Virus record (IMG/VR): IMGVR_UViG_3300031134_000004
Coordinates: 160,655 to 224,654 of that record
DNA length: 64,000 nucleotides
From: a virus
Taxonomy: Duplodnaviria > Caudoviricetes
Reading direction: 5' to 3' (one strand)
Numbering within the stretch: position 1 is the first letter of the stretch; each line of letters begins with the position of its first letter. The translations under genes were made by a program, and so were the position numbers. This document shows positions 2,068 through 57,770 of this stretch, one piece after another. The notes beneath the pieces are model-generated. The model did not search any database. It saw only the letters and a program-made list of their open reading frames with translations, and had not been told where the DNA came from.

Positions 2068-2118
2068 GCGTAAGGCGGGGGAGAGTAACTTCTCCCTCGC
2101 TTTATGCTTTTCTTTTTT
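2068..2118 (+). terminator. Intrinsic terminator with TATGC flank
   Basis: GCGTAAGGCGGGGGAGAG-TAA-CTTCTCCCTCGCTTTATGC followed by a T-run. Confidence 0.7.
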
Positions 2119-2129
2119 TAGAAGGTATC

Positions 2130-2459
2130 ATGGAACAAGTGTGTTTTGCAGGCTCGGCAAACTTTGAGCGCGATATTGAAATTGTCTCGGAGATTTTGTT
2201 GGGGGCAACCAAGCAGCAAGTAGCCACCAAATACAAATTGAACAAAGACCGTGTCGGCGTTATTGTGGAGAAGTTAGGCGCGACTATGCTGAGCAATTGG
2301 CAGACGCGCCATCCTACACAAGTGTATCCGGGCCCGCATGACGACAAGTCCCAACCCGTTGTCGGGCAAATTACTGACATGCGTAAGATCATGTTCTTCT
2401 GGGTGCCACGGGTACAAGAACTTCACGCAGACTATACAAAAACGAAAGGAGCATCATGA
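2130..2459 (+). CDS. Putative helix-turn-helix DNA-binding protein
   Basis: RBS GAAGG; RDIEIVSEILLGATKQQVATKYKLNKDRVGVIVEK resembles a sigma-region-4/Mor-type HTH. Confidence 0.6.
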   Translation: MEQVCFAGSANFERDIEIVSEILLGATKQQVATKYKLNKDRVGVIVEKLGATMLSNWQTRHPTQVYPGPHDDKSQPVVGQITDMRKIMFFWVPRVQELHADYTKTKGAS

Positions 2460-2803
2460 GTTTGAATTTTAACGACAACCCTTTGACGGACATTCCGCCT
2501 AACTACAAGCCTTTTTCTTTCCGGGCTGAATCAGGCATTGATGTCATCACGTTCATCAAGCGCGCTTACCGGCACGTCATTGAAATGAATGAAGGCGAGA
2601 CGCGTAGTGTCTCGATCACGGCGCTGCGTCTGGAGCAAGACTGGAAGACGGGCGAAGTCGGTGGTGAGTTTTATACGAACTTGACGCTGGAAGTGCTGCG
2701 TGAAATTGCGCGTACCGTTGAAGACGGTTACGTGTTGTTCCAGACACTGCGCGCCGTTCCCTTCAAAGACAATTCGCTCGAACGTGACAAGAGCATCCAA
2801 TAG
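2456..2803 (+). CDS. Hypothetical protein, tandem paralog A
   Basis: ATGA overlap with upstream gene, RBS AAGGAG; shares PFSFRxE and QTLR...NSxERDxS motifs with the next gene. Confidence 0.8.
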   Translation: MSLNFNDNPLTDIPPNYKPFSFRAESGIDVITFIKRAYRHVIEMNEGETRSVSITALRLEQDWKTGEVGGEFYTNLTLEVLREIARTVEDGYVLFQTLRAVPFKDNSLERDKSIQ

Positions 2804-2814
2804 GAACATTAACC

Positions 2815-3189
2815 ATGTATCACACTTACCGACCCTTCTCGCAAGAAGAACCTTACAACTTGCGTCCTTTCTCGTTTCGTTCTGAAGGACCTGCTGATGC
2901 TGTTCAGTTTCTCGGACTGATCGCAAGAAAGATTCAGCTTACGCACTTGAGTGAAGACGAGCGTGTGAAGAAGCTTTACTTCACCGAGCTGTTCATCGAA
3001 ACCGACACCCGCACTCACGAAAGTGTCGTTGAGTTCCAAAGCAACATGAAGCTCGAAGAGATGCAGAAAATCATCCGCTCGAGCGTGGAGATGAAAGAGT
3101 CGCACCAAGAGTACATGGAAGTTGTTCTTCAAACGCTGCGCGAACAACCTGCCCATCTGAACTCGATGGAGCGCGACCGTTCGCTTTAA
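2815..3189 (+). CDS. Hypothetical protein, tandem paralog B
   Basis: RBS TAGGA; shares PFSFRSE and QTLR...NSMERDRS motifs with the previous gene. Confidence 0.8.
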   Translation: MYHTYRPFSQEEPYNLRPFSFRSEGPADAVQFLGLIARKIQLTHLSEDERVKKLYFTELFIETDTRTHESVVEFQSNMKLEEMQKIIRSSVEMKESHQEYMEVVLQTLREQPAHLNSMERDRSL

Positions 3190-3241
3190 CGGCATAAAGC
3201 CAGGGGAAGTTCCCCTGGCTCGTATGACCTCTTTTTTTTTT
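3190..3241. terminator. Convergent terminator, CATA/TATG-flanked hairpin
   Basis: CGGCATAAA-GCCAGGGGA-agt-TCCCCTGGC-TCGTATGAC then T10. Confidence 0.8.
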
Positions 3242-3249
3242 GCTCGTTT

Positions 3250-3930
3250 CTAGTCGAGCATGCCTTGGTATTTCTTGGAACGGGATTCCACACGACCAGG
3301 GTACTTACTATTGATCATGCAGAATGATTCCCCGTAGCCGGCAACCTTGACATTCGATTGAGCGCACTTGGTTTCAAGGTTACCATACCAGTACTCCGGA
3401 TCACACTTAGCGTCCATGCGACACAACCGGATGCGTTTGGAAATGCTACCAGCCCCGCCATTGTATTTGGCAGCCTCGCAGGCAAGTGCTTCACGCGGAT
3501 TGGCCATCTGTACTTCGCAACTACGGTAACCAGCCTTTTGCTTGAGAAGCATTGCACGCAACTGGTATTGTGCGTTGGTGCAGTCTTCCCAGCTCCATTC
3601 CTTCAAGGACGGATGCAATCGTTTGGTTTCTTCCAGCGCGTCGAAACGCACCTTGCCGTTCTTGTCGTAGGCGATGGTAAATTGCCCGAAGCCACATCCC
3701 CATTCACGGGAGGTCTTCAATTGCGCATTGACCTTCCACAAGCTCTCTTGTTCGACCGAGCCTGCTGCGTGTTCGCGCAGTGGGTGCCATGCCCAGTGGG
3801 TGTCGATCTCGTACTTGAGCAAGGGGAGGTATTGCTCGGCTTGATTCGGAAGCTTAACCGAACCTGCTGCTGGCGAACACAGCAGGAACATGGTCAAGAT
3901 CAGAAACAGCCAGTTAGTCAGACGTTTCAC
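3250..3930 (-). CDS. SLT-family lytic transglycosylase with N-terminal signal/anchor (candidate endolysin)
   Basis: GTG start at 3930 overlapping the upstream TGA (GTGA); hydrophobic N-terminus; catalytic-type VEQES, GFGQF and AKYNGGAG motifs of the lysozyme-like SLT fold. Confidence 0.8.
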   Translation of the reverse strand: MKRLTNWLFLILTMFLLCSPAAGSVKLPNQAEQYLPLLKYEIDTHWAWHPLREHAAGSVEQESLWKVNAQLKTSREWGCGFGQFTIAYDKNGKVRFDALEETKRLHPSLKEWSWEDCTNAQYQLRAMLLKQKAGYRSCEVQMANPREALACEAAKYNGGAGSISKRIRLCRMDAKCDPEYWYGNLETKCAQSNVKVAGYGESFCMINSKYPGRVESRSKKYQGMLD

Positions 3931-4304
3931 AGCAGCCCCGACATCAAGAGGACAAGGACAATCCGGGTGAGCGTCGTGAGCGTGTTGATCGCATAGACAG
4001 CGATGCCGGCGCGGGTATCGTTGTTCATGATTGCCATACACGCAAGCTCTTGAAGATCAACCTTGGGCTGGAACGTAACGCGAATCCAGATCACGGAGAT
4101 CTCGACCCAGGTCAAGAGCGTCAAGGCGCCCAGGACCATCATGACTTCTGGGAACTGAGAGACGAAATCGCCGTGGTTTTGGCGAGCGTACTCGACCATG
4201 AAGTGCATCGCGAAGAAGCCGATGACGGTCAGGGCGAGCAGGACGGCCGAGCGCAGGAACAGACGCTTGGTCATTTCTTTGGTTTTCTTCGAAACGTTTT
4301 GCAT
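3927..4304 (-). CDS. Membrane protein with about 3 TM segments (candidate holin)
   Basis: RBS AGGA before ATG 4304; basic N-terminus, three hydrophobic stretches; translationally coupled to the transglycosylase. Confidence 0.6.
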   Translation of the reverse strand: MQNVSKKTKEMTKRLFLRSAVLLALTVIGFFAMHFMVEYARQNHGDFVSQFPEVMMVLGALTLLTWVEISVIWIRVTFQPKVDLQELACMAIMNNDTRAGIAVYAINTLTTLTRIVLVLLMSGLL

Positions 4305-4327
4305 GATACTTCCTAGTAATGAAATTA

Positions 4328-4362
4328 AAAGAACCGAGGGAAGCAAATAGTTTCCCTCGGGC
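4328..4362 (-). terminator. Intrinsic terminator after the tail-fibre gene
   Basis: CCGAGGGAAGC/GTTTCCCTCGG stem with an A-run on the plus strand (U-tract on minus). Confidence 0.7.
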
Positions 4363-4386
4363 ACTACATGATTACTACATTTTCAT

Positions 4387-7300
4387 TTACACTCCTGTGG
4401 ATTCAGAGTACAACTTCACACGGAATCGCACGAACTTGTTGGTGTTACTCTTAGCCCGGATCGTAATTTCCATCTCACCACTCTGTGGGTTGACAGCTGC
4501 ATTAGATCCAGTATTTGCTTGAGCAAGCCAACCACGGTCCAGAGCATACCAGCCAGAATTACCAGGCGGGATCGGGAAGGAAATAGCACTCAGTGGCGAG
4601 TAGTACAGTTCGTAATCAGACGCTTTAGATCCTTGTGGAATCCAGCGACCGCGAGCTGTTGCGCTATTTACACCGTAGCCGTAGAACGTACCGTCAGGAT
4701 TGATTTCGAAGATAACCGACGCACCGCCATCGCTAACGCCTCTGAAATTCAGATTTTCGTTAGGGTATGGCATCATTGGCGCTGCAATTGGGTCGTATCC
4801 GCAATCAACACTGTTGTACTGCAAGACGTCAGGATACTCGCCGTAGTTACCGTCAGCCCGAACAGCAACCAACGTTGTACCGTCACAATAGCGACGCAGT
4901 TCCGTACCACGAGGCGTTGGTGCAACATAACCGCAAGACACACTGTTGTATTCGGCCACTTCCACGTAATAGCTACCAGTGCCATCAGCACGACGACGCA
5001 TCAAGTTAAGACCCTCGCAGAACGTTCCCAGATCCGTACCAGCTGCTGGTGGTGGAATGTAACCGCAATCAGTGCTATTAGGGAATGGACGCTCAGTAAA
5101 GAAGCCATCGCCATTTGCAACACGAATAACCAACGTCGTGCCAGAGCAATAGCGCGACAGTTCTACACCAGCATTGGTGAAGTCCATGTACATGCTAATG
5201 GCATCGGACCATTCGCTTGTCAAACCGTTGTTGCTATTGTGACGCATCCGCACCAAGTACCACGAACCGTCAATCAGGTCTTGCGTTGTCGTACGAGCAG
5301 CAGTTGCACTACCACCTTCAGTCCACTCGCGAATCACACGCGTAGCATCACCGTTCAAGATCTGGTAAGTCTTGGACTTCCAGCTATCGTTCGGGTTCGT
5401 ACCACTCATGGCAAAGTCGGAATTGGTAAAGAAGATACCGTTACTTGCGTACGAGTCACCATACGAGCGACCCGACTCTGGCGAGATGATCGTTGGCTTG
5501 GCCACAAACGGCACAACGTAACCGCAGTAACCAGCGTTTCGTTCAAGCAGCGTTTTGATTTCACCGTAGTTACCATCAGAACGTTTATCGTACTTGTCGT
5601 AGCCTTCGCAGAACGTATCGAGCAAGGTGCCCGCTGCTGGCGAATTTGGCCACTCTGCACGGAAGTTGAGCCACTCCGACCATTTCGAGGACGGCAGCTT
5701 CATGCCGTTGTGACGCACACGCAGACGATAATCCGTGTGGTTTGTCAACATCGCTGACGGCAAGATGAACTGCTCACTGTTATCGTACACGAAGCCGTTC
5801 TTAAACAGCTGCGTACCCAAGTACAGTTCCCACTCAAGGTTATCGAATTGCTCCGAACCGAACGTGATTTGGAATGGCGAGCACATTGCTTTAAACGCAC
5901 CCAGACGGTCGGTCTGTTGTGTGTTGTTTGGTGTAGCCCACACTGGCGTTTTGATTTCTGCTGGTGCAAAGCCGCACACCGCACTGTACTCTTCTGCCAG
6001 AATCCACGTACTACCGTAGTTCCCGTCAGAGACAAGATTGTACAGATCAAAACCTTCGCACTCAGTCTTTAAGACTGTACCGGCAGCAGGTGAGGCAATC
6101 TTGGTGGTAAAGGCAATCGAGTTGGACCAACCCGACAGACCCATGTTCACACCCTTGTACTGCACCCGCGCATGGTACATCGTGCCATACGTGAGAGCAC
6201 CTGAAGGAATCGATACTGCCATTTTGCTGACAGCATCGTTGTAACGTGACCACACAAGTGTACCAGTGCCATTTGGACCCGTCCAGATTTCCCAGTCCGT
6301 AGAAGCATGGGTGTCCGTGCCTTTTGTCGCTGCAAAGACAGACGAAGTCAAGCCAGGTTGAAGAGCAGTCTCTGTAGCGCCGTTGACAGGGGCAGTAATA
6401 CTTGGCTGGCGAATCGCACCTTCAATCGTACTAAAGACCGTTGGGTTCGACCAGTCGGACCATTCGTTCTCAGCATTCATGTAGCGTACTCGCCAGTAGT
6501 AGCGCATCACCACACCAAGTGTCGTCGACAAGGTGTATGACAAAACGGGACTATTGATGGTTTCGTTCACCACCAAACTCTTCATGTCTTCCGTACTGGA
6601 GACTTGGAACTGGCTGGCTTTGTGAGGCACCCGGTAGATCGAACCATAGTCGTCCGACACGAGCGTCGCTTTAAGCACCACATTCGTTTCGTCCTTGGCA
6701 GGCAGGCGATTGACCGGCTGACGCACCTTTGGATAGACGGGCTTTTCATCACGGCGGAAATACTGCGGATGAGGATCGCGCTCTTTGCGGTGAAAGGCAA
6801 TGGCTGAACGCATCGACAACTGAGCGCGTTCAACCAAGTCAGGGGTGATGAGACCGATGTTCGCTTCGAGATACGCGTAGACACTATCGTAACCGACAGC
6901 GCTACCGGCGAGCAAGCTTGCGTTGATGCGGTCAAGTGCTTGCACCACATACTCAAACCCAAAGCGCGTGCCTTTGCCCATCAAGCGCACACTCTCTGGC
7001 GTGTCTTCTACACTCCATACTGGCAGTGGCCACGCTGGGTTGCGTTGATCGAAGTTGAAACTATTTAGTACAGCCGCCAGATCATCGTCACTGTTACTGT
7101 ATTGTGCACCTACACTTTGGTACGAGAGCGTAACGCCACCACTGGCTGGGACATTTTTCAGTACCAGTAAGCCCGCCACGTCCTTGTCAGACAAGCCCGT
7201 TGGAATAGCGTGCAGCTCAGTGATGATGTAATCTCGTCCGCGTGAGAGGACTTGTTTCGTTGCGGTATTAACGACACGCATCGAATCGACATAGAAGGGT

Positions 7301-7422: not shown

Positions 7423-7448
7423 GCTTACCCTCTCCTTGTGGAAATGAA

Positions 7449-7483
7449 TAAAAAGGGGAGGGCACTGCCCTCCCCAGTATGCC
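7449..7483 (-). terminator. Intrinsic terminator between the two tail-fibre genes
   Basis: GGGGAGGGC/GCCCTCCCC stem, U-tract on minus strand, TATGCC on the plus-strand 3-prime side. Confidence 0.75.
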
Positions 7484-9631
7484 TTACGTTTTTGGAATCA
7501 AACGAATAGCACGGATACGCGTTGCCACGTTCTTCGCACCATTGGTTACAGCACCAGTGGACATGTTCACGCGCCGATGGTCAAACACAGGCGTACGAAC
7601 GTCGTGGTAAGCACCAGGGGTATAACCGACAACTTCAGTGCGGTATTCCGACACCGCGCAGTTCCAGTTCACTTCCCAGTAACCGACGTATTCGCCCCAC
7701 GGCATTTGCTGACCGTTGGTACTAAAGTGCGACTGTACATCGTTCGGACCTTGTTCGCCACGGGAGCACTTGACAGACGAACTTGGATAAGCCGACTCAC
7801 CTTGCGGACCTGCACTGTAGCTACGCGGTGAAGCGTACTGGTGCAGATACGAACTGTAAATCGGCGTATCTGGGTCGCTGTAACTATCGTTACGGATGTA
7901 GTCGTAGGGCGAGGACGAACCATGCACGACAGCATTCATCGCTTGGGCTGCACCGGTTTTGAAGATCACTGGTGAAGTAGCGCGAGTTGGACCCACGTTA
8001 GTGTAGATCGACTGAAGCGCGGCCAGTGAAGGTACTTGCCAGTCGCTAAAGCCACCCAAGGTCAATGCCTTGGCCCAGTTCGCAGCATCACTACCGAACG
8101 CTTTGAGGTTGGTGGTATTAAGCACCGAGTCAGCGTCGTTACCGGCCACCTTCGTCGTTGCATTGGCCATCTTCAAGTCCGTCTCACCACCAATCTTCGG
8201 TGCGAGAATGATGCCGTACGTAGTGGGACCAACCACCACATCGCCTGCGTAATAACCACCACCATAGCTCTCGCCAATGGTAGTTGGAAACGGCGGGTAG
8301 TCCACCAGCAACGAACGATTTGCCGACCAAGCCGACGCACCCACAACTGCACCTTTGTGAGCAACACGCGGGTAGTACGTGGTTTTGTTTGCCAAAATCG
8401 TGTGCGGTACTTGGATACTGGTTTTGTTGACCGTGTCGTTGTACGAGCTAAACAGAAGGTTGCCAGTACCATTCTCACCAGACCAGATTTCCCAATCGGT
8501 TGAGACGTGGGTGTCAGTCATGCCTTGCACAGCGAACGCTGAACTGGTCATGGTAAAGCCATTGGTGACGACTTTCTGTCCGTTGACCGGTGCGGTGATG
8601 GATGGTTGCATCACAAACACAGCGCCGGTATCGAACGACCATGTGGCTGACCACTTCGACTTCTTCTTGTCCACATCGAAGTGACGCATGCGCCAGTAAT
8701 ACGTCGTAGACGCATCCAAGCGTGGCAACTGGTACGACTTGAGATTCGCTCCATTGAGAACCTGGTCCACCACCATTTGACCTGCGAAGTTTGCCTGCTT
8801 AGACACCTGCACTTCGATCCCGCCTTGCGAGAGTGCGTACAAGGAATAAAACGGCGACGTCTCCACCGTGATGGCAAGACCTGCGCGTTGCAAGCCATTG
8901 GTTGGTGCGATGTTGATTGGCTGACGTACCATCGGGATGATGATGTCGTCCGCTTCTACTTTCGTCAAGTACTGAACGTGTGGATCAGGATGGTCAACGT
9001 GCGTCTTCATGACCGCCGTAACCGATTCTGCAATCTTGGCCAGCACTTGTGGCGAGACGAACCCAACAGCCAGATCGATGTACGCATAGAGCGAATCGAG
9101 CTTGGCAGCATCGCGCAGCTTCATCGACGAATTGACCCGTTCAAGGGCATTGTAGATGAATTCCCAACCGTACGTATCGCCCACATCGTGCAAGTGGTGG
9201 CTAGGTTTAAATTCAGATGGCCAGTCAACGATGTCGTTTTTCGACACAGGACGCTCATCGAGCATCAAGGCAGTTACGAGCTGCTCAATTGCTTTGGCAT
9301 AGTTACACCAAGGACCACCAGCTGCTTGGTATTGGATGGTAACTTCATCGTGCACGTTCGTATCGGTGATGAGGATGAGTGAACACACTTCCTTACCCGA
9401 CAGTTCCGTGGGGTCCTCGAGCATTTCCGTGGCAACGAATTGCTTGTTAATGTCGAGCACTTTTTGGGTAGCGGTATCGACAATGCGCAGCGACTCAGTA
9501 AAGAAGCCGCCGTGCACTGGAGCGATTGCCCGCACCTTCCGACGGACCATCTGGTGAACCTCCCCTTGGACAAGGTTATTTTGGTTCGTACCAGACAAGT
9601 CCTCCGGGTACTTAATAATGACGGGCGCCAT
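7484..9631 (-). CDS. Tail fibre / virion structural protein with C-terminal DUF1566-like (C-type-lectin-fold) domain
   Basis: N-terminal half paralogous to 4387-7422; GESYGGGYYAG, GGFSDWQVPSLAAL and terminal VNMSTG...K...RIRAIR motifs typical of DUF1566. Confidence 0.75.
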   Translation of the reverse strand: MAPVIIKYPEDLSGTNQNNLVQGEVHQMVRRKVRAIAPVHGGFFTESLRIVDTATQKVLDINKQFVATEMLEDPTELSGKEVCSLILITDTNVHDEVTIQYQAAGGPWCNYAKAIEQLVTALMLDERPVSKNDIVDWPSEFKPSHHLHDVGDTYGWEFIYNALERVNSSMKLRDAAKLDSLYAYIDLAVGFVSPQVLAKIAESVTAVMKTHVDHPDPHVQYLTKVEADDIIIPMVRQPINIAPTNGLQRAGLAITVETSPFYSLYALSQGGIEVQVSKQANFAGQMVVDQVLNGANLKSYQLPRLDASTTYYWRMRHFDVDKKKSKWSATWSFDTGAVFVMQPSITAPVNGQKVVTNGFTMTSSAFAVQGMTDTHVSTDWEIWSGENGTGNLLFSSYNDTVNKTSIQVPHTILANKTTYYPRVAHKGAVVGASAWSANRSLLVDYPPFPTTIGESYGGGYYAGDVVVGPTTYGIILAPKIGGETDLKMANATTKVAGNDADSVLNTTNLKAFGSDAANWAKALTLGGFSDWQVPSLAALQSIYTNVGPTRATSPVIFKTGAAQAMNAVVHGSSSPYDYIRNDSYSDPDTPIYSSYLHQYASPRSYSAGPQGESAYPSSSVKCSRGEQGPNDVQSHFSTNGQQMPWGEYVGYWEVNWNCAVSEYRTEVVGYTPGAYHDVRTPVFDHRRVNMSTGAVTNGAKNVATRIRAIRLIPKT

Positions 9632-9685
9632 AGTTAAAGCTCCTACTAATAAGAGTGAGTGGTCGGCTAGTTGGCCGACCTTGTA

Positions 9686-9862
9686 TTACGCTGCAGAGGT
9701 CTTAACGAGTTCTGCACTCACCGTGTATTCGCCCGGATTGGTCGTCGAGAAGACGCCTTTGTCCGTGACCCAGCCTTTGGCTTTGGTGTCGTAACGTGGT
9801 TGGGTAGCACCCACAGGGATTTTCTTGCCCGCAGCATGCAGGAAGTACGTCTTGGTGTTCAT
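9686..9862 (-). CDS. Small 58-aa hypothetical protein not in the ORF track (MNTKTYFLHAAGKKIPVG...KTSAA)
   Basis: ATG overlaps the upstream TGA (TGATG), RBS AAAGGA, typical codon usage, TAA at 9686-9688 followed by a hairpin. Confidence 0.7.
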   Translation of the reverse strand: MNTKTYFLHAAGKKIPVGATQPRYDTKAKGWVTDKGVFSTTNPGEYTVSAELVKTSAA

Positions 9863-13501: not shown

Positions 13502-13543
13502 CGGCATAAGCCCCCGGCTAGTAAGGCCGGGGGTCTATGACGC
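13502..13543. terminator. Convergent CATA/TATG-flanked hairpin
   Basis: CGGCATAA-GCCCCCGGC...GCCGGGGGT-CTATGACG; no U-tract on either strand. Confidence 0.7.
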
Positions 13544-17732: not shown

Positions 17733-17773
17733 CGTCATAAGCCCCCGGCTCAAGTGGCCGGGGGTGTATGCCG
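17733..17773. terminator. Convergent CATA/TATG-flanked hairpin
   Basis: CGTCATAA-GCCCCCGGC...GCCGGGGGG-TGTATGCCG. Confidence 0.7.
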
Positions 17774-22903: not shown

Positions 22904-22954
22904 CGTCATAAACCCTACCCGTGCCTCACAAGCATCGGGTAGGGTCCTATGCCC
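22904..22954. terminator. Convergent CATA/TATG-flanked hairpin
   Basis: CGTCATAA-ACCCTACCCG...CGGGTAGGGT-CCTATGCCC. Confidence 0.7.
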
Positions 22955-30530: not shown

Positions 30531-30745
30531 AGTCCATCCTCGACCCATCCCACTTACTCCAGGGATACGGGTCGAGGGGACTCACAGGCTTTGGTTTCGA
30601 GTCCAGTAGTGGCGTGATCCTTTCGAGGGTTGCTGCTACAACAGTCTCGTAGGAGCCCGTTGGAGAAAAGCAGCACTCGAGCGCTCAGGCGCTCGAGTGT
30701 ATGCCGCGGCATAAAGAGAAGCCCGGTTGCCCAGACTCCTCTTTA
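30531..30745. ncRNA. Candidate structured intergenic RNA plus back-to-back terminators
   Basis: Four stems in 215 nt of non-coding DNA, with G-U pairs and UUCG/GCAA tetraloops. Confidence 0.35.
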
Positions 30746-34375: not shown

Positions 34376-34380
34376 AGGCA

Positions 34381-34419
34381 GCATAGACCCCCGGCGCATC
34401 TGGCCGGGGGCTTATGACG
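34381..34419. terminator. Convergent CATA/TATG-flanked hairpin
   Basis: GCATAGA-CCCCCGGC...GCCGGGGG-CTTATGACG. Confidence 0.7.
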
Positions 34420-45242: not shown

Positions 45243-48200
45243 ATGTACGAAAGCCCTATCAACATTGCGCGTGAACTTCAACTCATCGCGCGTGGCACAC
45301 GTTCGCTTGCGAGCATGTTGCCTGCTAATTTTGTCAAGCGTTCCTCACCCGTCATGGAGTCGATCGATTCCATTTACGGTACGGTCTCGCTTGAGTCGAT
45401 GCAGTTCTACGACTTCTTCTACAAGCGTTTCGGTGTGCGTCGTGCTGACCATTTGACTGCACCTGTGATGCCAGAACTGGAAGCGCTGGAGTTGCCTAAG
45501 CAATCGATCCTGCATTACGTGTCGATGAGTCCAATGGAATCGGGCCCAGCAGCGGACGACTTCCTGTTTCGCAATATCACCATCCCTATTCAAATGGGGC
45601 ATGTGACGGAAAACGGCGATAGCAAAGGCGTACCACGTAAATTGACCGTGGCAACCTCGACCTTGATCAGTTCGTACCACATCAAGAACCGGCGTTTTCG
45701 CCAGATGCGTAACTTGGATGCGGCAACGCGTGATCCTAATACGCTGCTCGTGTACAACTACGGCTTCATTCCTCAGCTCTACCATTATGCGCGTTCGTTT
45801 TATAGCGAGTACTACAAGTGGTGGAACATTCAGTCGGCGTTGTGGAAGAGTGTGGCGCAAGTGGCCAAAGGAACCGACCGTCACCAATTCATCGTCTGCA
45901 AGTTGCCGACGGTGTTGCCGAGCATTCCTGACTTGGCCATTGGTACGGGTCCAATTTCGCAAAAGGTCGTCAAGATCTTTAGCACGCCTGAATCACTCAT
46001 GCTCTTGGAGCTGTGGAAATGGTTCGGTGAGCAGCGTTTGGAATCGGTCATTAACCATGTACCGGTGGACCAGTTGAACAAGGTCAACCTGATCTTCCAA
46101 GAATCGGGTCGTTGGTTCGTCATGAACTTGGGTCTGCTCAATAGCTGGCGTAAAGCGACGGACAAGGAACTGGAATCGCAAAGTAATGCGAACACCAAGG
46201 GTCTGGATGCCAAACTGTTCCAGCGCCGCTTCCTGCGCCTGACCATGGCATTGTTCCAAGTGCGTAGCGTAGCTTCGCCTGAAGTGCAAGCCATGACGGA
46301 CGGTAAGAAAGGCAACGAAAAGACCCCGGTGGAAAACACCGTGCAAGTTGTCAAGCAAGACCCGACGATTCCGCAAACGAATGGTGGTGTGGCATCGGTG
46401 CCAACCAAAACCCAGAAGCTGCCAACTGCAGCGACCATGGGGCAAGGGATGGATGCGCCTGACCATACAGCAGAAGACATGGAGCACGATGAAGCGTCTG
46501 ATGCACAGCTGACGAAAGACTTGGCTGAGCTGGAAATCATTTCGAAGAACCACGTCGGTCCGCACGAAGGTGAAGCGGTTGAAGAAGAACTGGTGGTTGA
46601 ACCCAAGACGCTGGAAGAAGGCGTCATGCGGGTGTGCGATCGTTTGGCTGACCAAGGTCTCTTGTCGGCTGCGCAGTACCGTCACTACGACGAACTGGCC
46701 AAGACGTACCGCACCATCACCGCACCAGATGGCAAGACTAACCTGGCTGACTTCATCAAGATCAGTAATGAGACGCTTGTTATTAAAGAGTCGCCAAGCA
46801 TTCCGGACATCAAAGCTGTCGTTGACAAGACGATGCTTAAATCCAGTTTGCATGTGTTCGATTCGCGTTACATTACCGAAGTCATGGACCGCGACGTGGC
46901 CTCGATGGTGCTTAACCTGCAAAACGCAGGCATTGCCATTACCCACTACGAAAAAGAACGCATTGAAGATGTTGTCGGTGCATTCGATTCGTACACGGTG
47001 CGCTTAACGCCAGTGCAGGGTGTCTCAACGACGTGGCGGTTCAAACTGCCAGCGCTCAATGAAGACGGCAGCTACATGGCCAACGGTGTTAAGTACCGCA
47101 TGCGTAAGCAGCGTGGTGACTTGCCGATTCGTAAGATCGGACCGGATCGCGTGGCAATGACGAGTTACTACGGTAAAGTCTTTGCCAGCCGTTCGAGTAA
47201 GCGTGTCAACGACTACGGTCAGTGGCTGCGCAATTCGATCATGGCAATGGGTCTGGACGATGTGAATACGACGGTGACGAATCTGCAACCGTCGCCTGTG
47301 TTTGATAAGCTCTTTAAAGCGCCGCGTCTTTACACCACGATCGCCATGGGTTTCCGTGCGTTCACCATCAAACCAGTGCAAACACCACCGGGCATGAAGA
47401 GCATTGCGTTTGACTGCTCGTTCGATCACACCAAGCGTGAATTCCTGTTTGGTAAAGAAGCCATCGCCAAATACGAAAAGGACGGTATCATCCTGATCGG
47501 TCACGATGTGTCTTCGCAGCGCTACTTGGCAATGGATGCCAACGGTTTGCTGTACGTGTCGAACTTGGACGCCCTGATGGACTTTGGTACGATCGAGTCG
47601 ATCCTGGGCCTGCCATCGGAAAAAGCGCCAGTGGACTTTGCTGAACTGAAGGTGCTGGGTGTGAGTATTCCAATCGGTGTTATTCTCGGTTACGTCATGG
47701 GCTTGGATAAACTCATGAAGTTGCTGAAGGTCACGCCGCGTCGGGTAACGGCAGGTACGCGTGTCAACTTGGGTCCGCATGAATACGAACTTGTCTTTAG
47801 TGATGAGACGCTTGTGCTGAACCGAGAAGATCGCTTGGCCACGATGGTGCTCGCTGGCTTTAACGAATACCACCGCGCGATTCGTAGCTACAGCGTGTAC
47901 GAGTTCGACAAAGACGCCGTGTACTTAAACGTCATGGAGTCGGGCGGCGCTGGTGTACGTTATTTGCGTGAGATTGAACACCTGTTTAATCTCTTCATCG
48001 ATTCGATCACGCGTGACTTGCTGATCGAGATGAAAGAGCCAACGAACTTCCGTGGTCTGCTTTTGCGTAGTTGCGAGATGCTGCTTACGGACGACCACCC
48101 TGACGAACTCGATCCTGCGTTCATGCGCATTAAAGGTTACGAGCGGATGGCAGGGGCAGTCTATAGTGAACTGATTCGCGCTGTGCGTTCACACGCTGGC

Positions 48201-49709
48201 CGGGCTGGTAAATCGAAGCTGCCAATTGACCTGCATCCTTACGCTGTGTGGAAGAACATCGCGCAAGATCCATCGATCGCCATCGTCAACGAAATCAACC
48301 CAATCCAGGACTTGAAAGAAATGGAAGCCGTGACGTATAACGGCGTGGGTGGACGTAATAGCCGTTCGATGACCAAGCACACGCGTGTCTACCATCGCAA
48401 CGATATGGGCACGATGTCTGAATCGACCGTTGACTCCTCGGACGTGGGTATCAACACGTACTTGAGCGCTGACCCGCAATTTACGTCGCTGCGCGGGATG
48501 AGTCGTGGTTACGAGATCGGTAAGACTGGTCACACTGCACTGCTCTCAACGTCGGCGTTGATTTCAGTCGGCTCGAACTTCGATGATCCGAAACGGGTGA
48601 ACTTCGTGGGTATTCAACACGGTCACGGTATTGCTTGTTCAGCTTACAAGCAGTCGCCAGTTCGCACTGGTTACGAACAGATCGTCGCGCATCGCACGAG
48701 TGATTTGTTTGCAGTCACAGCCAAGAAGTCCGGTAAAGTCGTTGCCGTTAGTGAAGACGGTATTGTCATTCAGTACGACGATGAGAAAGAACCGCGTGGC
48801 TTTGAACTGGGTCGTCGCTTCGGTAACGCATCCGGTCTTACCATTCCGCACAATGTCATCTCGGAAATGAAGGTCGGGCAGAAATTCAAAGAAGGCGAAG
48901 TCATCAGCTACAACGACGGGTTCTTCGAGAAAGACTTGCTCAACCCAAGTAACGTGGTGTGGAAAGCCGGTATCATGGTCAAGACCGTACTCTTGGAGTC
49001 AACCCAAACGCTGGAAGATGCATCGAGTATCTCCCAACGCGTGGCAACGCTCTTGAGCACCAAGGCCACGAAGGTCAAAAACGTGATGGTGCGCTTCGAT
49101 CAATCGGTACGTAAGCTGGTCAAAATGAACCAAGCTGTCGAGCCGGAGGATATTTTATGCATAATTGAAGATGCCGTCACCGCAAACAGTGGTCTGTTTG
49201 ACGACGCTTCGCTCGATACGCTGCGTGTCATGAGTGGGCAAACCCCACAGGCGAAAGCCAAAGGCACGATTGAGCGGATCGAAGTGTACTACCATGGCGA
49301 TAAGGAAGACATGTCCGAATCCCTGCGTGCACTGGCTACTGCGTCGGACCGTGAAATGATTCGTCGTAAGAAAGCTGCAGGCAAGAAAGCGTTCCCCGGT
49401 AGCACGGATGAAGGTTTCCGTGTCGATGGCGAACCGCTTGCGCTCGATACTGCCGTGATCAAGATTTACGTAACTGCCGATGTTGCTGCTGGTGTGGGTG
49501 ACAAAGGTGTGTTCTGTAACCAGATGAAGACTGTCTTCTCTGAAGTCATGACCGGCGAGACGACCACTGAAACTGGTAAGACCATCGACGCTGTCTTCGG
49601 GCAGAAATCCATTGCCGACCGTATCGTCAATTCGCCAGACATCATTGGTACGACCGCGACTCTTTTGGATGTGATTGGTAAGAAGGCACTTGCAGCGTAT
49701 CGCTCGTAA
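45243..49709 (+). CDS. rpoB: Virion RNA polymerase beta subunit, large N-terminal piece (phiKZ gp178-like)
   Basis: 1488 aa; YYGK.F..R, SESTVDSSDVG, DDPKRVNF..IQ, RTGYE, GDK...NQ.KT and D.VFG motifs of beta. Confidence 0.92.
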   Translation: MYESPINIARELQLIARGTRSLASMLPANFVKRSSPVMESIDSIYGTVSLESMQFYDFFYKRFGVRRADHLTAPVMPELEALELPKQSILHYVSMSPMESGPAADDFLFRNITIPIQMGHVTENGDSKGVPRKLTVATSTLISSYHIKNRRFRQMRNLDAATRDPNTLLVYNYGFIPQLYHYARSFYSEYYKWWNIQSALWKSVAQVAKGTDRHQFIVCKLPTVLPSIPDLAIGTGPISQKVVKIFSTPESLMLLELWKWFGEQRLESVINHVPVDQLNKVNLIFQESGRWFVMNLGLLNSWRKATDKELESQSNANTKGLDAKLFQRRFLRLTMALFQVRSVASPEVQAMTDGKKGNEKTPVENTVQVVKQDPTIPQTNGGVASVPTKTQKLPTAATMGQGMDAPDHTAEDMEHDEASDAQLTKDLAELEIISKNHVGPHEGEAVEEELVVEPKTLEEGVMRVCDRLADQGLLSAAQYRHYDELAKTYRTITAPDGKTNLADFIKISNETLVIKESPSIPDIKAVVDKTMLKSSLHVFDSRYITEVMDRDVASMVLNLQNAGIAITHYEKERIEDVVGAFDSYTVRLTPVQGVSTTWRFKLPALNEDGSYMANGVKYRMRKQRGDLPIRKIGPDRVAMTSYYGKVFASRSSKRVNDYGQWLRNSIMAMGLDDVNTTVTNLQPSPVFDKLFKAPRLYTTIAMGFRAFTIKPVQTPPGMKSIAFDCSFDHTKREFLFGKEAIAKYEKDGIILIGHDVSSQRYLAMDANGLLYVSNLDALMDFGTIESILGLPSEKAPVDFAELKVLGVSIPIGVILGYVMGLDKLMKLLKVTPRRVTAGTRVNLGPHEYELVFSDETLVLNREDRLATMVLAGFNEYHRAIRSYSVYEFDKDAVYLNVMESGGAGVRYLREIEHLFNLFIDSITRDLLIEMKEPTNFRGLLLRSCEMLLTDDHPDELDPAFMRIKGYERMAGAVYSELIRAVRSHAGRAGKSKLPIDLHPYAVWKNIAQDPSIAIVNEINPIQDLKEMEAVTYNGVGGRNSRSMTKHTRVYHRNDMGTMSESTVDSSDVGINTYLSADPQFTSLRGMSRGYEIGKTGHTALLSTSALISVGSNFDDPKRVNFVGIQHGHGIACSAYKQSPVRTGYEQIVAHRTSDLFAVTAKKSGKVVAVSEDGIVIQYDDEKEPRGFELGRRFGNASGLTIPHNVISEMKVGQKFKEGEVISYNDGFFEKDLLNPSNVVWKAGIMVKTVLLESTQTLEDASSISQRVATLLSTKATKVKNVMVRFDQSVRKLVKMNQAVEPEDILCIIEDAVTANSGLFDDASLDTLRVMSGQTPQAKAKGTIERIEVYYHGDKEDMSESLRALATASDREMIRRKKAAGKKAFPGSTDEGFRVDGEPLALDTAVIKIYVTADVAAGVGDKGVFCNQMKTVFSEVMTGETTTETGKTIDAVFGQKSIADRIVNSPDIIGTTATLLDVIGKKALAAYRS

Positions 49710-49792
49710 GTTTCTTTGGGGGGTGTTCTTAGGAGCACCTCTTCCAATCACCCGGCACTCAACAACACTTTCAGTTCGTAATAGGAAACCCC

Positions 49793-49987: not shown

Positions 49988-49990
49988 AGC

Positions 49991-51433: not shown

Positions 51434-51441
51434 ACAACAGC

Positions 51442-52167: not shown

Positions 52168-52184
52168 GTTTTAGAAAGAAGATC

Positions 52185-52958: not shown

Positions 52959-52961
52959 GGT

Positions 52962-52998
52962 GTCATACGGGCTGGGGAATTCCCCAGCCTTTATGCCG
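52962..52998 (+). terminator. CATA/TATG-flanked hairpin after the protease gene
   Basis: GTCATACG-GGCTGGGGA-AT-TCCCCAGCC-TTTATGCCG. Confidence 0.75.
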
Positions 52999-53003
52999 TC
53001 TTT

Positions 53004-53036
53004 AAAAAACTTTCAGACATATATCACAAAGTTGAG
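53004..53036 (+). promoter_or_regulatory. Candidate phage early promoter
   Basis: AAAAAACTTTCAGACATATATCACAAAG; TATATCAC resembles the published phiKZ early consensus TATATTAC. Confidence 0.45.
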
Positions 53037-53125
53037 CAAGTAGCATCAATGAGTTAAAAAATAACGCGTTGCTGCTTTCTATGCAAGAAGTCATTCCTCT
53101 TACAACCCAAGGAGATCTTTCATTC

Positions 53126-53632
53126 ATGAATCAATCGGATGCGGTACTGGACTTTAACGGTTACATGCACCGCCTTAACTCTGTCGTTAGTGCAGCCAAG
53201 GCATCCCGTCACGAGATCACCGTTAGCGCTGATCAAGTGCACAACTTCCTCGATACGTCGCGCGCCTTTGTGATCAACTGGCCAAACGACTTTAAAGTGC
53301 CAGACGACACACCAACGATCCTGTTCAAGTTCAATGGCAAGTTCATGATCTTGACCAACACCAACAAGTCGCTCCTCGATGGCAAGAAAGAAATCACGGG
53401 TCTGGTGATCTCGACGGTCGGTTTGAAGAACTGTCGCATTGCTGACGACCAGATCCCAACGGTCGTTCCACAAGACATTCTGGATGCTCGCAACAATGAG
53501 CGCGTTCGCAATGGTAACACTGACTGGCTGAAACACGCCGGCACGGTTCGTTCGATTCACACCCCAGCTGCTCCTGCTCATCCGCAAGAGTTCCGTAACG
53601 CACCGCGCTTCTCGACGAACAAGCGGTACTAA
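53126..53632 (+). CDS. Hypothetical protein
   Basis: RBS AAGGAG before ATG 53126; follows an early-promoter-like motif. Confidence 0.75.
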   Translation: MNQSDAVLDFNGYMHRLNSVVSAAKASRHEITVSADQVHNFLDTSRAFVINWPNDFKVPDDTPTILFKFNGKFMILTNTNKSLLDGKKEITGLVISTVGLKNCRIADDQIPTVVPQDILDARNNERVRNGNTDWLKHAGTVRSIHTPAAPAHPQEFRNAPRFSTNKRY

Positions 53633-53672
53633 TCTTTCCCCAACAACTATCCACTTCCGCTAGGAGATAATA

Positions 53673-54302
53673 ATGAACAACAAAGCCGCTCCGAAGAATG
53701 CCAAAACGCATCCTAAAAAGCAGCAGTCCAATGTTACCGGTCTGATCGTTGCCATCGGTCGCCGTGACTTCCGTTACGACGATGTGCGTAGCGCGACGCT
53801 GCATGCGCCGCTCGTGGACATCCCGATCGATCAACTGACGATCTTCCGTGACACCATGAAAGAGACCCAGCCGGATCTCAACACCAACGCAATCGACGAC
53901 GGCGTCATTCGCATCGTGCGTGTTCGTCCGGAACTGTACGAAGTCATCTCGGGTCGCAACCAAATCGTCGCTGCGATCTTCGACTACAAGAAAGCTGTCG
54001 CCGCTGCTGCTGAAGTGCCGGCCAACCAAGGCAAGAAAGTCGGCGAGCTGGTCAAGACGCCTACGCTGAAAATGCGCCTGGCTTCGTGGAAGCACCTGAA
54101 CCCGTGCGAACACCTCGGTCACAAACTCGATGCTGATCAGCTGAAAGAAAACCTGACGCAACTGGCTGCAACGTCGAGCGTCAAGATCAACCTGCCAAAA
54201 GAAAAGACGGTGCCGGTCGCAGCACTGTTCCAAAAACCAGCACCCAAAGCACCTGTTCCAAGCTCGGGCAAGTTCGGCCGCATCTTCGGCCAAGCTGCCT
54301 AA
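53673..54302 (+). CDS. Hypothetical protein with possible ParB/Srx-like segment
   Basis: RBS AGGAG; IPIDQL...IRIVRV....YEVISGRNQIVAA; basic termini. Confidence 0.7.
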   Translation: MNNKAAPKNAKTHPKKQQSNVTGLIVAIGRRDFRYDDVRSATLHAPLVDIPIDQLTIFRDTMKETQPDLNTNAIDDGVIRIVRVRPELYEVISGRNQIVAAIFDYKKAVAAAAEVPANQGKKVGELVKTPTLKMRLASWKHLNPCEHLGHKLDADQLKENLTQLAATSSVKINLPKEKTVPVAALFQKPAPKAPVPSSGKFGRIFGQAA

Positions 54303-54386
54303 TCCAAGAATCTGTCGTAGCACAGAACCCCTGACCAATTGGTCTTCACCCTGTAGTACCCTTACTTTAAAATCAAGGAAGAAATC

Positions 54387-54881
54387 ATGAGCACCGTCGA
54401 AACCACCGTCAAGTCGAAAATCACCGAAACCACCCGTTCGCTGGCTGACAAGCTGAAGGCCGAGATCACCGTCGACGTCACCACCGGCACGGTCGCCGAC
54501 CAGAAGTCGTTCTTCATGGACAACCTGCCTGAAGGCGTGACGCCGGAACTGGTCGCCACCTACGAAGGCTACAAGGACACCGTCGTCAAGGCCGGCGGCC
54601 TGGCCCTGGGCGAAGTCTCGATCGACGCGATGAAAGCGAACCCGGAACTGAACCGCGTGACGATGACCATCCCGACCGTCGGCAAGAGCTACATCGGCTA
54701 CGCCTTCGACCGCTCGCGCCAGGTGCCGAGCCGCAACGACGATGGCACCACCGGCACCCGCGAAAAGCTGGGCGCCCTGACCGTCGACGTCGTCACCTAC
54801 GGCACCAAGAACCGCGGCGAGTTCGCTGCTGTCAAGAACGAGCTGTCGGAAATGGCCCTGATGGGTCTGAGCAAGAAGTAA
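54387..54881 (+). CDS. Hypothetical protein with extreme codon optimisation (probably abundant)
   Basis: RBS AAGGA; almost all third positions C/G; followed by a UUCG hairpin. Confidence 0.8.
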   Translation: MSTVETTVKSKITETTRSLADKLKAEITVDVTTGTVADQKSFFMDNLPEGVTPELVATYEGYKDTVVKAGGLALGEVSIDAMKANPELNRVTMTIPTVGKSYIGYAFDRSRQVPSRNDDGTTGTREKLGALTVDVVTYGTKNRGEFAAVKNELSEMALMGLSKK

Positions 54882-54910
54882 TTCGGCGCCGGCTGTAATG
54901 TAACACGTAG

Positions 54911-54956
54911 AGAGCTGACCTTCGGGTCAGCTCTTTATGCCCTCTTTATTTTTTTC
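54911..54956 (+). terminator. UUCG-capped terminator with TATGCC flank
   Basis: AGAGCTGACC-TTCG-GGTCAGCTCT-TTATGCC then a T-run. Confidence 0.8.
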
Positions 54957-54973
54957 CTAGTTGAGTACCCTAT

Positions 54974-55450
54974 ATGACCCTCGCTCAAGACTTCGGCAAC
55001 CAGATGGCTGCCATCAACGAACAAATCGAACAAGCATCCATCGACCAACGTACTGATGGTTGGGTATTTGCCCAAAACGACATGTTCCGTCAATTCCGTC
55101 GTCTGCGTCACCACCTCACCCACTTCTCGAACAGCAGCGGGATGAGCAACAAAGAAATCGCTCAGGGCTTGCAAATCCCTGAAGAGCATGTCGAGATCAT
55201 GCTCCGTACCGCACTCATCCAAGTGCTGGAAGTCGGTTCGATCGTTCGTTCGAAAAACCCGGATCGCGACCCATTGCATTGCGGCTCCGGTACGTACCTC
55301 GAGGCCATCGTCGTGTCCATCGAACCGTTTGTCATGGTATCGGTCGATACCAGCATGCGTTGGAGTACTTGGACGCCTGATCGTATCGTTCCTGTAGCGA
55401 CTGCCGATGCAGAGTTGCTCGAGCTTTGCAGAAAACGTCTGGAAGATTAA
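54974..55450 (+). CDS. HTH-containing hypothetical protein
   Basis: GMSNKEIAQGLQIPEEHV closely matches the LuxR/sigma-r4 HTH pattern; beta-rich C-terminus. Confidence 0.6.
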   Translation: MTLAQDFGNQMAAINEQIEQASIDQRTDGWVFAQNDMFRQFRRLRHHLTHFSNSSGMSNKEIAQGLQIPEEHVEIMLRTALIQVLEVGSIVRSKNPDRDPLHCGSGTYLEAIVVSIEPFVMVSVDTSMRWSTWTPDRIVPVATADAELLELCRKRLED

Positions 55451-55455
55451 TTCAT

Positions 55456-55485
55456 GGAAGGGGGGTAGTCCTCCTTCTTTTTTTT
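55456..55485 (+). terminator. Intrinsic terminator before DHFR
   Basis: GAAGGGGG-gtagt-CCTCCTTC then T8. Confidence 0.6.
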
Positions 55486-55499
55486 GTGGAGAAGTAAAA

Positions 55500-56177
55500 A
55501 TGAGTCAGTACCCGATCGAACTGATTGTGGCCGCCACCCCTGACGGTGAGATCGGCTACGCCAATACTATCCCGTGGCATCTCAAAGGCGATTTAAAGCG
55601 CTTTAAAGAGACCACCATGGGTCACGTCGTCATCATGGGTCGCAAGACCTACGAATCACTTCCAGGCACGCTCAAGGGCCGCACAGTCGTTGTGGTGTCG
55701 GAGACGCTCTTGAAAGAAAACAAAGGACGACGTCACCCTGGTCCGGGCTTCATGAGTTTCGTCGATAGCATCCAGTGCAAGGTACTGTTTGCCATGAGTC
55801 TCATGGACGCATTGGCTGTGGCAATGGCAGAAGTCATCTTGATGCCTGAATGTAAAATCTTCGTTGCAGGTGGTGCTCGGCTCTACGAAGAAGCGCTTGA
55901 GATGATGGACGACAATCCCAACATGCGTTTGACGGTGCATTTGACGACCGTCTACAAAGACCCAGTTACCGAAGCGTACGACACTGTCATCAAGAACTTC
56001 GATCGACTCGACAGGTACGACCTTGTGGGTGATCCGATTGTTGTCTACGATGAAGAGTGGAAAGATCCACCTGCTCAACATCTGGACCCTGGTGGCTGGT
56101 ATTGGCCTGATCCACTGCCACGGCAATTGATTTCTCGTACCTTGTCCCACACTTACAGCACACTGGTTCGCAAGTAA
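55500..56177 (+). CDS. folA: Dihydrofolate reductase
   Basis: LIVAA...G.IG..N.IPWHL.GDL..FK..T.G..VIMGRKTYESLP and FVAGGARLY motifs; extended C-terminus. Confidence 0.95.
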   Translation: MSQYPIELIVAATPDGEIGYANTIPWHLKGDLKRFKETTMGHVVIMGRKTYESLPGTLKGRTVVVVSETLLKENKGRRHPGPGFMSFVDSIQCKVLFAMSLMDALAVAMAEVILMPECKIFVAGGARLYEEALEMMDDNPNMRLTVHLTTVYKDPVTEAYDTVIKNFDRLDRYDLVGDPIVVYDEEWKDPPAQHLDPGGWYWPDPLPRQLISRTLSHTYSTLVRK

Positions 56178-56364
56178 AAACTTACTTCATTCTTTGAGGA
56201 AATATCTCCTCGTTTTCTTAGAGAATGAATCATGAGTAAATATTCGCAAACGATGCACATCCCTGACCATCTGGGTGATCCTACGCACATTTTTGATCTC
56301 ATCATGAGTGGCGGTGCTGAAGGTGCTCCAACACAACTGTCGTTCCATGTCTTAAAGGACAGGT

Positions 56365-56739
56365 ATGAACCAAAAGGTCCAAGTGTGGACAATCCAAATA
56401 GCGAAGTGGAGGGTAGCGAAACAACGTGATATCTTCTTCTTAGATACGACTGCCAAGTCCGGTATGGCAGCGTTCGCTCCTGACTTTAGTGACGTCATGC
56501 GTTACAAACGTGGTGAGATGGATGAAGAAGAATACACGCGCATTTATATCGAACGAATGGAGCAATCCAAAATACGCTACCCACTGCGTTGGGAGTCTCT
56601 TGTAAAACGGCCAAGAATTGCCTTTGCTTGCTATTGTAAGCCAGGGCAATTCTGCCACCGTCATTTGTTCCTCGATATTGTCGAAAAACACTTCGCACCA
56701 CTAGGTTATGAAATCACTCGCATGGGTGAACTTGAATAA
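56365..56739 (+). CDS. DUF488-like protein
   Basis: AFAP...YK.G.M..EEY...Y.E.M and IAFACYCKPGQFCHRHL motifs (C...CHR); RBS AGGA. Confidence 0.7.
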   Translation: MNQKVQVWTIQIAKWRVAKQRDIFFLDTTAKSGMAAFAPDFSDVMRYKRGEMDEEEYTRIYIERMEQSKIRYPLRWESLVKRPRIAFACYCKPGQFCHRHLFLDIVEKHFAPLGYEITRMGELE

Positions 56740-56748
56740 GGAGCAGTC

Positions 56749-57057
56749 ATGAGTATTGTAATTAAGATCCGTAAGGGTGAGCCATTGAAACTGGTGCCTA
56801 CTGAAAGTGTTTCGGTACTGCCTACCAACACTGGTGCTGGAAAAGCAATGATGGATAAGTTGATGGCTGAATTCGATGGGGACCCGGACTACGTTCCTCC
56901 TGCGCCTATCAAAAAGCTCATCAAAGACTACGACAATCTCGTTGAGGCTGATTTGCAAAAGCGCCTTGCCAGTGGCGTTGTAAATCCAACCGAAGATCCA
57001 CTTACTGGTTTCGTGGAAGTCATTGCAAGCGTGGTTAAGAATCCACTCGATAAGTAA
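56749..57057 (+). CDS. Hypothetical protein
   Basis: RBS AAGGAG, 102 aa. Confidence 0.7.
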   Translation: MSIVIKIRKGEPLKLVPTESVSVLPTNTGAGKAMMDKLMAEFDGDPDYVPPAPIKKLIKDYDNLVEADLQKRLASGVVNPTEDPLTGFVEVIASVVKNPLDK

Positions 57058-57066
57058 GGAGTCATC

Positions 57067-57339
57067 ATGGCTGCAATCATTAAACGCATCCCCATCACGA
57101 AAGACTTGTTTCTTATCGACACATCGCGTATCGGTGTGTTTCCTCCTATGTCGCCTGAAATGACGAAGACGTGGATTGATGGGTTAAAAGAAGCAATGTC
57201 AGTGCCGCTGATGAGTATTGAAGAAGTTGTTGGGCACAATCCACAAGCAGCATTGGCCAAGGATTTGAAGCGTCGTTATAAAGTCCGTTATCCAACATCG
57301 CAACATGAAGAACGCCGTGACTTATTGAGTAAAGACTGA
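57067..57339 (+). CDS. Hypothetical protein
   Basis: RBS AAGGAG, 90 aa. Confidence 0.7.
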   Translation: MAAIIKRIPITKDLFLIDTSRIGVFPPMSPEMTKTWIDGLKEAMSVPLMSIEEVVGHNPQAALAKDLKRRYKVRYPTSQHEERRDLLSKD

Positions 57340-57680
57340 TGCAGCGGCAAATCCACGAAGACACTGTACGCCGGATGCATCCTGGTCAGCTATTGCAAAA
57401 CTACTTGTTATCCTCGTTCTGTTATTACGAACTGGACCAAAGTCCGATGACAGACAATGCCTTTGATCTGATGTGCAAGTTGCTTCACGGGGAGTTTGAT
57501 AACCTTGTGCATCCACACAAACACTTGACGAACAAAGAAAGTTTGGAAGCAGGTACGCTGTTACTGGCTCGGGACAAGTATCCAAGGATGATTGGTGTTT
57601 CAGTCGATGCTTACATGTTGTCTGTTGCAGATGGTTCGTTCTTTACCCGCATTGAACCCCATTTAAAGAACGCGGCATAA
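57339..57680 (+). CDS. Stand-alone NAD-dependent DNA ligase domain Ia-like protein
   Basis: TGATG coupling; YYELDQSPMTDNAFDLM matches LigA domain Ia YY..D.P.(I/V)SD.EYD.L. Confidence 0.6.
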   Translation: MQRQIHEDTVRRMHPGQLLQNYLLSSFCYYELDQSPMTDNAFDLMCKLLHGEFDNLVHPHKHLTNKESLEAGTLLLARDKYPRMIGVSVDAYMLSVADGSFFTRIEPHLKNAA

Positions 57681-57770
57681 GCCGAGAGAAACCCGCAAAG
57701 GTTTCTCTCGGCGTTTATGACGGCATTGCACCGTTGGGGTAAAAGAGAAGCGAACTCCTCTTTTTTTTCT
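57673..57770. terminator. Convergent terminator pair
   Basis: CGGCATAA-GCCGAGAGAAACC...GGTTTCTCTCGGC-GTTTATGACG, plus a second minus-strand UUCG hairpin AAGAGGAG-TTCG-CTTCTCTT. Confidence 0.75.

Follow-up and report, generated by a model that had tools for sequence, protein, structure and literature searches.

Why do intergenic hairpins in a phage genome run so regularly into the tetranucleotide TATG, and does the combination stop transcription, start it, or neither? The question is raised by a 64,000-nt stretch of viral DNA (positions 160,655 to 224,654 of IMG/VR record IMGVR_UViG_3300031134_000004), for which an initial annotation, made from the letters alone, listed 12 such hairpins as a candidate phage-specific termination or terminator-promoter element. 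We call this stretch the window and number positions within it; positions marked 'genome' (G000:C1) refer to the whole record, a single 224,654-bp genome of 51.5% GC of which the window is the last 64 kb. We conclude, with a probability of about 0.8, that the repeated hairpin+TATG elements are transcription terminators of the type found in phage phiKZ, two-sided at convergent junctions. What we observe directly is the anatomy of the elements, their statistics, their placement at gene 3′ ends, the tuning of the hairpins to the sense strand and their conservation in relatives. The element type is already known from experiments in phages phiKZ and 201phi2-1, and the present phage adds its own version of it. 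Three lesser observations reach past the published work: the avoidance of TATG in this genome, the tail pairing of two-sided copies, and a separate early-promoter-like motif behind several terminators.

Hairpins followed by TATG are placed at gene 3′ ends

All 12 listed hairpins are real: each is a GC-rich stem-loop with TATG 0-3 nt past the stem on one or both strands (Table 1). The stems are 8-13 bp long with loops of 3-8 nt, and RNA folding gives two-tier stem-loops of -26 to -48 kcal/mol (z of -2.8 to -5.9 relative to shuffled sequences). The coordinates under which five sites had been listed (3190, 13502, 17733, 22904 and 57673) are those of minus-strand TATG tails. CATA precedes the stem at convergent junctions, as had been noted, because a tail is present on each strand. 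The absence of a U-tract on both strands at 13502, 17733, 22904 and 34381 was likewise correctly described. At 2068, TATGCT is joined to a T-run, giving a near-canonical terminator; at 7455 the sense (minus) strand has a canonical hairpin and U-tract, and TATGCC is found on the antisense strand only. No Rfam family reached its gathering score within the window.

Scans for perfect stems and for TATG-anchored hairpins gave about 50 elements genome-wide. The consensus of their tails reads y-T-T-TATG-[C 56%/A 29%]-C 74%-G 55%-Y, and pairing is kept across 42 distinct inner stem sequences, although some stems recur exactly (GGCTGGGG/CCCCAGCC and CCCCCGGC/GCCGGGGG). Among 66 half-sites, 28 have TTATGYYG, nine have the full phiKZ tail and 13 have TATGACG. 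The 7-9 nt or so directly past the stem, where a canonical terminator has its U-tract, are instead occupied by yUUAUG(C/A)CG. The genome also has about a dozen separate hairpin + T-run terminators. There is also a tail subclass in which TATGACCTC is followed by a run of 8-10 T starting about 10 nt past the stem (window 3230-3242; genome 48800, 58010, 145480 and 158435), a spacing too long for a canonical U-tract. A run of at least five T occurs within +7 to +30 at 18% of half-sites and in 5% of random intergenic windows.

The initial annotation had considered that the motif might be no commoner beside hairpins than in shuffled intergenic sequence. This is not the case: genome-wide, 66 of the 116 TATG[CA]C hexamers (57%) sit 0-4 nt past a hairpin with a minimum free energy of -13 kcal/mol or lower, as against 3.3% for other TATGNN hexamers and 2-3% for control tetramers. 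With a looser folding threshold, -9 kcal/mol, the background was about 15%, and thresholds of -11 and -13 kcal/mol were used instead. Taken by itself, TATGMCG shows no significant excess in the window (15 copies, 11.1 ± 3.4 in shuffles), yet 12 of the 15 abut a strong intergenic hairpin; the signal is therefore one of placement.

That placement is at gene ends. We mapped 241 genes (88.6% coding) with a heuristic based on open reading frames and codon usage, which is not a curated annotation, and on this map, whose junction classes may be wrong for a few small genes, elements occur at 17 of 18 convergent junctions, 27 of 205 tandem junctions and none of 17 divergent junctions. The hairpin starts a median of about 12 nt past the stop codon, and the next start codon is anywhere from 22 to 2124 nt away. 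Together, these distances and the junction census tie the element to gene 3′ ends rather than to gene starts. As in phiKZ, the elements lie just past stop codons and are two-sided between convergent genes. We conclude that the element marks the ends of transcription units and nearly all strand switches in the genome.

The hairpins are selected as RNA

At tandem junctions the RNA hairpin is more stable on the sense strand in 25 of 30 cases (Wilcoxon p = 2.4e-4), and the stems contain 29 G·U pairs on the sense strand but two on the antisense strand; at convergent junctions G·U pairs are balanced between the strands (10 vs 9). The hairpin at 30714 is stable on the minus strand only, which is the strand of the gene ending beside it. 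G·U pairs confined to one strand are meaningless in duplex DNA, indicating that selection acts on the hairpins as RNA, within the upstream gene's transcript.

This asymmetry bears on whether the elements might be features of DNA, that is, mobile palindromes resembling repetitive extragenic palindromic (REP) sequences or miniature inverted-repeat transposable elements (MITEs), or protein-binding or cruciform sites unrelated to transcription. The exact recurrence of the GGCTGGGG/CCCCAGCC and CCCCCGGC/GCCGGGGG stems and the fixed polarity of the flanks would suit such a repeat. However, REP- or MITE-like elements would be near-identical copies scattered regardless of gene ends, whereas here there are 42 distinct stems placed strictly at 3′ ends, with G·U pairs that would do nothing in DNA. 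We find a DNA-level origin hardly credible.

Related phages carry terminators of the same design

By its genes, the source is a phiKZ-like jumbo phage (nucleus-forming, Chimalliviridae-type) with its own multisubunit RNA polymerases. A 1488-aa gene at window 45243-49709 encodes an RNA polymerase beta-type subunit that matches 313 jumbo-phage records; the best match of this virion RNA polymerase beta subunit is to Burkholderia phage FLC9 (54% identity), followed by Ralstonia phages RP12/RP31 (45%). The phiKZ gene order gp178, gp180, gp181, gp182 is repeated around it. PHROG matches next to the elements include virion structural proteins, a baseplate assembly protein and a head maturation protease. 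Megablast of 6 kb of the window against a phage collection gave no match, and relatives were found at the protein level only. A 10-kb query, probably too long for the purpose, brought up no RNA sequencing run.

The suggestion that similar flanks may already have been described in related phages proved right (PMC10914365, PMC11512511). Using ONT-cappable-seq, Putzeys et al. (2024) located 133 termination regions on the phiKZ genome. The motif BCCYCCCCHWWDGGGRRGGBYTTATKYYGT, in which a TTAT region comes after a stem-loop, is common to 61 of them, and six phiKZ terminators situated between convergent genes are two-sided (PMC10914365). The phiKZ motif has a counterpart in motif A of 201phi2-1 (n = 59), which resembles it, and a second motif of that phage, B, makes the stem longer. 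An in vivo assay between two reporter genes covered eight strong terminators of 201phi2-1, of which five combine two motifs: six of the eight equalled or beat the lambda T0 control, and those with multiple motifs were stronger than those with one (PMC11512511). The elements described here have the same layout, with a tail of the TTAT(K)YYGT type 0-3 nt past a stem-loop, and their homology to the motif mapped in phiKZ and 201phi2-1 leads us to predict that they terminate transcription.

Our scans of phiKZ, FLC9 and RP12 found the hairpin+TATG element in all three, including at syntenic junctions. The FLC9 gp43/gp44 convergent junction, syntenic with window 34379-34419, carries the element with a different stem, and the element adjoins the head protease gene both in phiKZ (gp175) and in the present phage. 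Across phages, syntenic copies have unrelated stems and conserved flanks, so that the element is kept at the same junctions of distant phages while its stem is not, a further point against a DNA-level repeat.

Selection on the sense-strand RNA would also be expected of an RNA processing or stability element, in which the polymerase reads through and the transcript is cleaved within its UAUG sequence or shortened as far as the hairpin, which from then on shields the 3′ end; the lack of a U-tract in the tail fits this too. A hairpin that merely stops trimming requires no conserved tail downstream, however, and the related motif-bearing terminators of 201phi2-1 blocked expression between two reporter genes in uninfected cells. 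In addition, the two-sided layout at 17 of 18 convergent junctions suits the avoidance of polymerase collisions. We give processing very little credence as the function of the elements.

TATG as a promoter core

TATG is also the core of phiKZ late promoters, with G at +1 (Yakunina et al. 2015, PMC4666361), as the initial annotation had rightly stated, and a structure published in 2026 shows the beta-like subunit GP123 bound to single-stranded non-template TATG (Chen et al. 2026, PMC12809450). In the present genome, no tetramer falls further short of expectation than TATG/CATA (observed/expected 0.58, z = -16.7); phiKZ avoids it more mildly (0.79). Compared with synonymous-codon shuffles, TATG is purged from genes to 0.38x on the sense strand (z = -20) and 0.44x on the antisense strand (z = -12), and its density in divergent gaps is 4.8 per kb per strand. 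The elements share the letters TATG with the phiKZ late promoter, and the avoidance in genes and enrichment in divergent gaps are as expected if TATG is read alone.

By these patterns TATG looks like a signal of its own, which speaks for a stop-and-restart function, in which the hairpin ends the upstream transcript and the adjoining TATG serves the non-virion RNA polymerase as a late promoter, with transcription starting at the G. This would re-launch the next gene or, at convergent junctions, launch antisense RNA. At four tandem junctions (genome 46990, 120113, 139231 and 140277), the ribosome-binding site starts 5-8 nt past TATG and the start codon lies 22-23 nt past the hairpin, leaving no space for another promoter; restart at the tail G is possible there. 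Elsewhere, the evidence runs the other way. Hairpin+TATG[C/A]C is found at 0 of 17 divergent junctions, and the CCG/ACG extension is confined to hairpin-linked TATG, whereas phiKZ late promoters have neither conserved flanks nor a hairpin: the reference late promoter P119L lacks one, and published late-promoter logos show nothing past TATG. A late promoter would have TATG upstream of, and pointing at, the gene to be expressed, but 30 half-sites, about half of the total, aim into the 3′ end of a convergent gene, even though antisense TATG is otherwise purged. Positions -4 to -12 of such a promoter would be GC-rich stem and hard to melt, and a distinct promoter-like motif lies 25-50 nt past several of the terminators. 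We consider stop-and-restart improbable as the function of the elements. Between the two readings that the initial annotation had proposed, a termination signal that replaces the U-tract is supported by the 3′-end position, the sense-strand G·U asymmetry and the match to the phiKZ/201phi2-1 motif; the other, in which a late promoter joined to the terminator drives antisense transcription, is unsupported as a general reading.

Tails of two-sided copies are mismatched

The two tails of an element show a regularity. One-sided tandem copies have the sense tail TATGCC in 19 of 24 cases, but in two-sided copies TATGCC never stands opposite a second TATGCC. The 13 convergent copies with both tails in full are TATGCC/TATGAC throughout, and one further copy is TATGAC/TATGCT. 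Among the seven two-tailed tandem copies, five pair a sense TATGCC with an antisense TATGAC, one is TATGCC/TATGCT and one, at genome 158406, is TATGAT/TATGCT. With genome 120113 (TATGAC/TATGTT) and window 22904 included, every one of 21 two-sided copies has a mismatch at tail position 5 or 6, and in 19 of them TATGCC faces TATGAC. The flanks are therefore always mismatched just past CATA/TATG; independent choice of tails should make most two-sided copies fully complementary. FLC9 follows the same rule (7 of 7 two-sided copies, all TATGCC/TATGAC), and all five RP12 copies (5 of 5) are mismatched at position 5 or 6. In phiKZ, 0 of 28 two-sided copies are complementary at positions 5-6, which is near chance (about three expected) given its degenerate tail. 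The rule is statistically firm only for the present phage and FLC9.

Why a terminator tail should spell the late-promoter core is a question raised by these data. One tentative answer, which we regard as doubtful, is that the tail does more than substitute for a U-tract as a weak hybrid: the beta-lobe pocket that binds single-stranded non-template TATG at late promoters (Chen et al. 2026) may also read the tail, so that the elongating polymerase would pause and the hairpin would release the transcript. If so, the single word TATG would signal 'start' where the DNA melts easily and 'stop' past a hairpin. Such reuse of the pocket would account for the avoidance of TATG, stronger than that of any other tetramer, on both strands, and it might relate to the non-complementary tails of two-sided copies. 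TATG avoidance and the C/A non-complementarity suggest concrete variants for use with purified phiKZ polymerases.

Sites in the window and neighbouring motifs

The coordinates of the 12 sites are collected in Table 1. At window 30700-30713, two one-sided terminators stand tail to tail, and their abutting tails form a perfect palindrome, TATGCCGCGGCATA.

Table 1 Hairpin+TATG sites in the window (window coordinates)
Feature	Position	Strand	Context and details
One-sided terminator	2073..2109	+	After 1180-aa gene ending 2063; hairpin 2073-2102, tail TATGCTT then T-run; three sense-strand G·U pairs
Two-sided terminator, convergent	3190..3229	both	Minus tail TATGCCG 3190-3196, hairpin 3197-3221, plus tail TATGACC 3223-3229, then T10
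Canonical terminator	7445..7484	-	Hairpin 7455-7475 then U-tract; antisense plus strand TATGCCT 7478-7484 (GGCATA upstream on sense strand)
Two-sided terminator, convergent	13502..13542	both	Stem CCCCCGGC/GCCGGGGG; minus tail TATGCCG, plus tail TATGACG; no U-tract
Two-sided terminator, convergent, after baseplate assembly gene	17733..17773	both	Stem as at 13502; plus tail TATGCCG, minus tail TATGACG
Two-sided terminator, convergent	22904..22954	both	Long interrupted stem 22911-22946; plus tail TATGCCC, minus tail TATGACG
One-sided terminator for plus-strand gene ending 30515	30674..30706	+	11-bp stem, tail TATGCCG
One-sided terminator for minus-strand gene ending 30752	30707..30743	-	Folds well on minus strand only (G·U pairs); tail TATGCCG
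Two-sided terminator, convergent	34379..34419	both	Plus tail TATGACG, minus tail TATGCTG
Terminator after head maturation protease gene, tandem	52961..52998	+	Sense tail TATGCCGT, antisense tail TATGACA
One-sided terminator, tandem	54910..54942	+	Tail TATGCCC then T-rich stretch
Two-sided terminator, convergent	57673..57722	both	13-bp stem; minus tail TATGCCG, plus tail TATGACG

Shortly after the terminator that follows the head maturation protease gene lies a conserved motif of about 30 nt, TTCAnnCATATAT(T/C)(C/A)C...TGAG (window 53006-53040, core CATATATCAC at 53018-53027). Nine further copies occur at genome 9856, 12103, 33768, 45137, 83919, 133761, 134191, 154121 and 158594. All ten are intergenic and aimed at a downstream gene, several of them 25-50 nt past a TATG-tailed terminator. 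Early promoters of phiKZ have an extended consensus, and for that reason the motif looks like a candidate early (virion polymerase) promoter of the present phage. Transcription units that start at it also end at TATG-tailed hairpins. Outside the window, downstream of the copy at genome 154121, about 2.1 kb (genome 154121-156219) is without a predicted gene and could hold a non-coding RNA or small genes missed by the gene heuristic. Upstream of start codons, ribosome-binding regions share a consensus of unusual length, AACAAGGAA, found in 27 of 150 upstream regions.

Proposed mechanism and comparison with known terminators

In the termination mechanism that we propose, the GC-rich stem-loop would form in the RNA just past the stop codon, and the short tail y-U-U-A-U-G-(C/A)-C-G-Y would stand in for a long U-tract, the two together stopping the multisubunit RNA polymerases that belong to the phage itself. 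Between convergent genes, a single hairpin with a tail on each strand would halt transcription from both directions. More speculatively, the weak U-A-U pairs may lie where the hairpin invades the RNA:DNA hybrid, and release may take place about 7-9 nt past the stem, near C-C-G.

Some points weigh against reading the elements as phiKZ-type terminators. The tail spells the late-promoter core TATG, making a second function possible. The mapped phiKZ 3′ ends could in principle be processing products. Finally, the phiKZ stem form CCYCCCC...GGGRRGG fits some copies (the CCCCCGGC/GCCGGGGG and CCCTCT types) but is reversed in others (GGCTGGGG/CCCCAGCC): the phiKZ consensus begins with its C-rich arm, whereas in about half of the stems here the G-rich arm leads. 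The practical value of the elements is in annotation, where some 50 of them mark the ends of transcription units.

Bacterial two-sided intrinsic terminators, in which a hairpin is flanked by an A-tract and a U-tract, likewise use one hairpin for both strands and have near-complementary flanks. The elements described here differ from them in that UAUG(C/A)CG replaces the U-tract and the flanks carry a fixed mismatch right past TATG. The likeness to the phiKZ motif and to motif A of 201phi2-1 covers several features: a GC-rich stem-loop leads directly into (Y)TTATG-YY-G-T, an upstream CATAA half lengthens the stem, dozens of copies per genome lie at gene 3′ ends with two-sided copies between convergent genes, and the genomes belong to the same phage group. 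The present phage departs from phiKZ at tail position 5, which is C or A rather than C or T, and in its GC content (51.5% vs 37%). The hairpin + TATG terminator design is conserved from a Pseudomonas phage of 37% GC to relatives of Burkholderia and Ralstonia phages with 52-56% GC.

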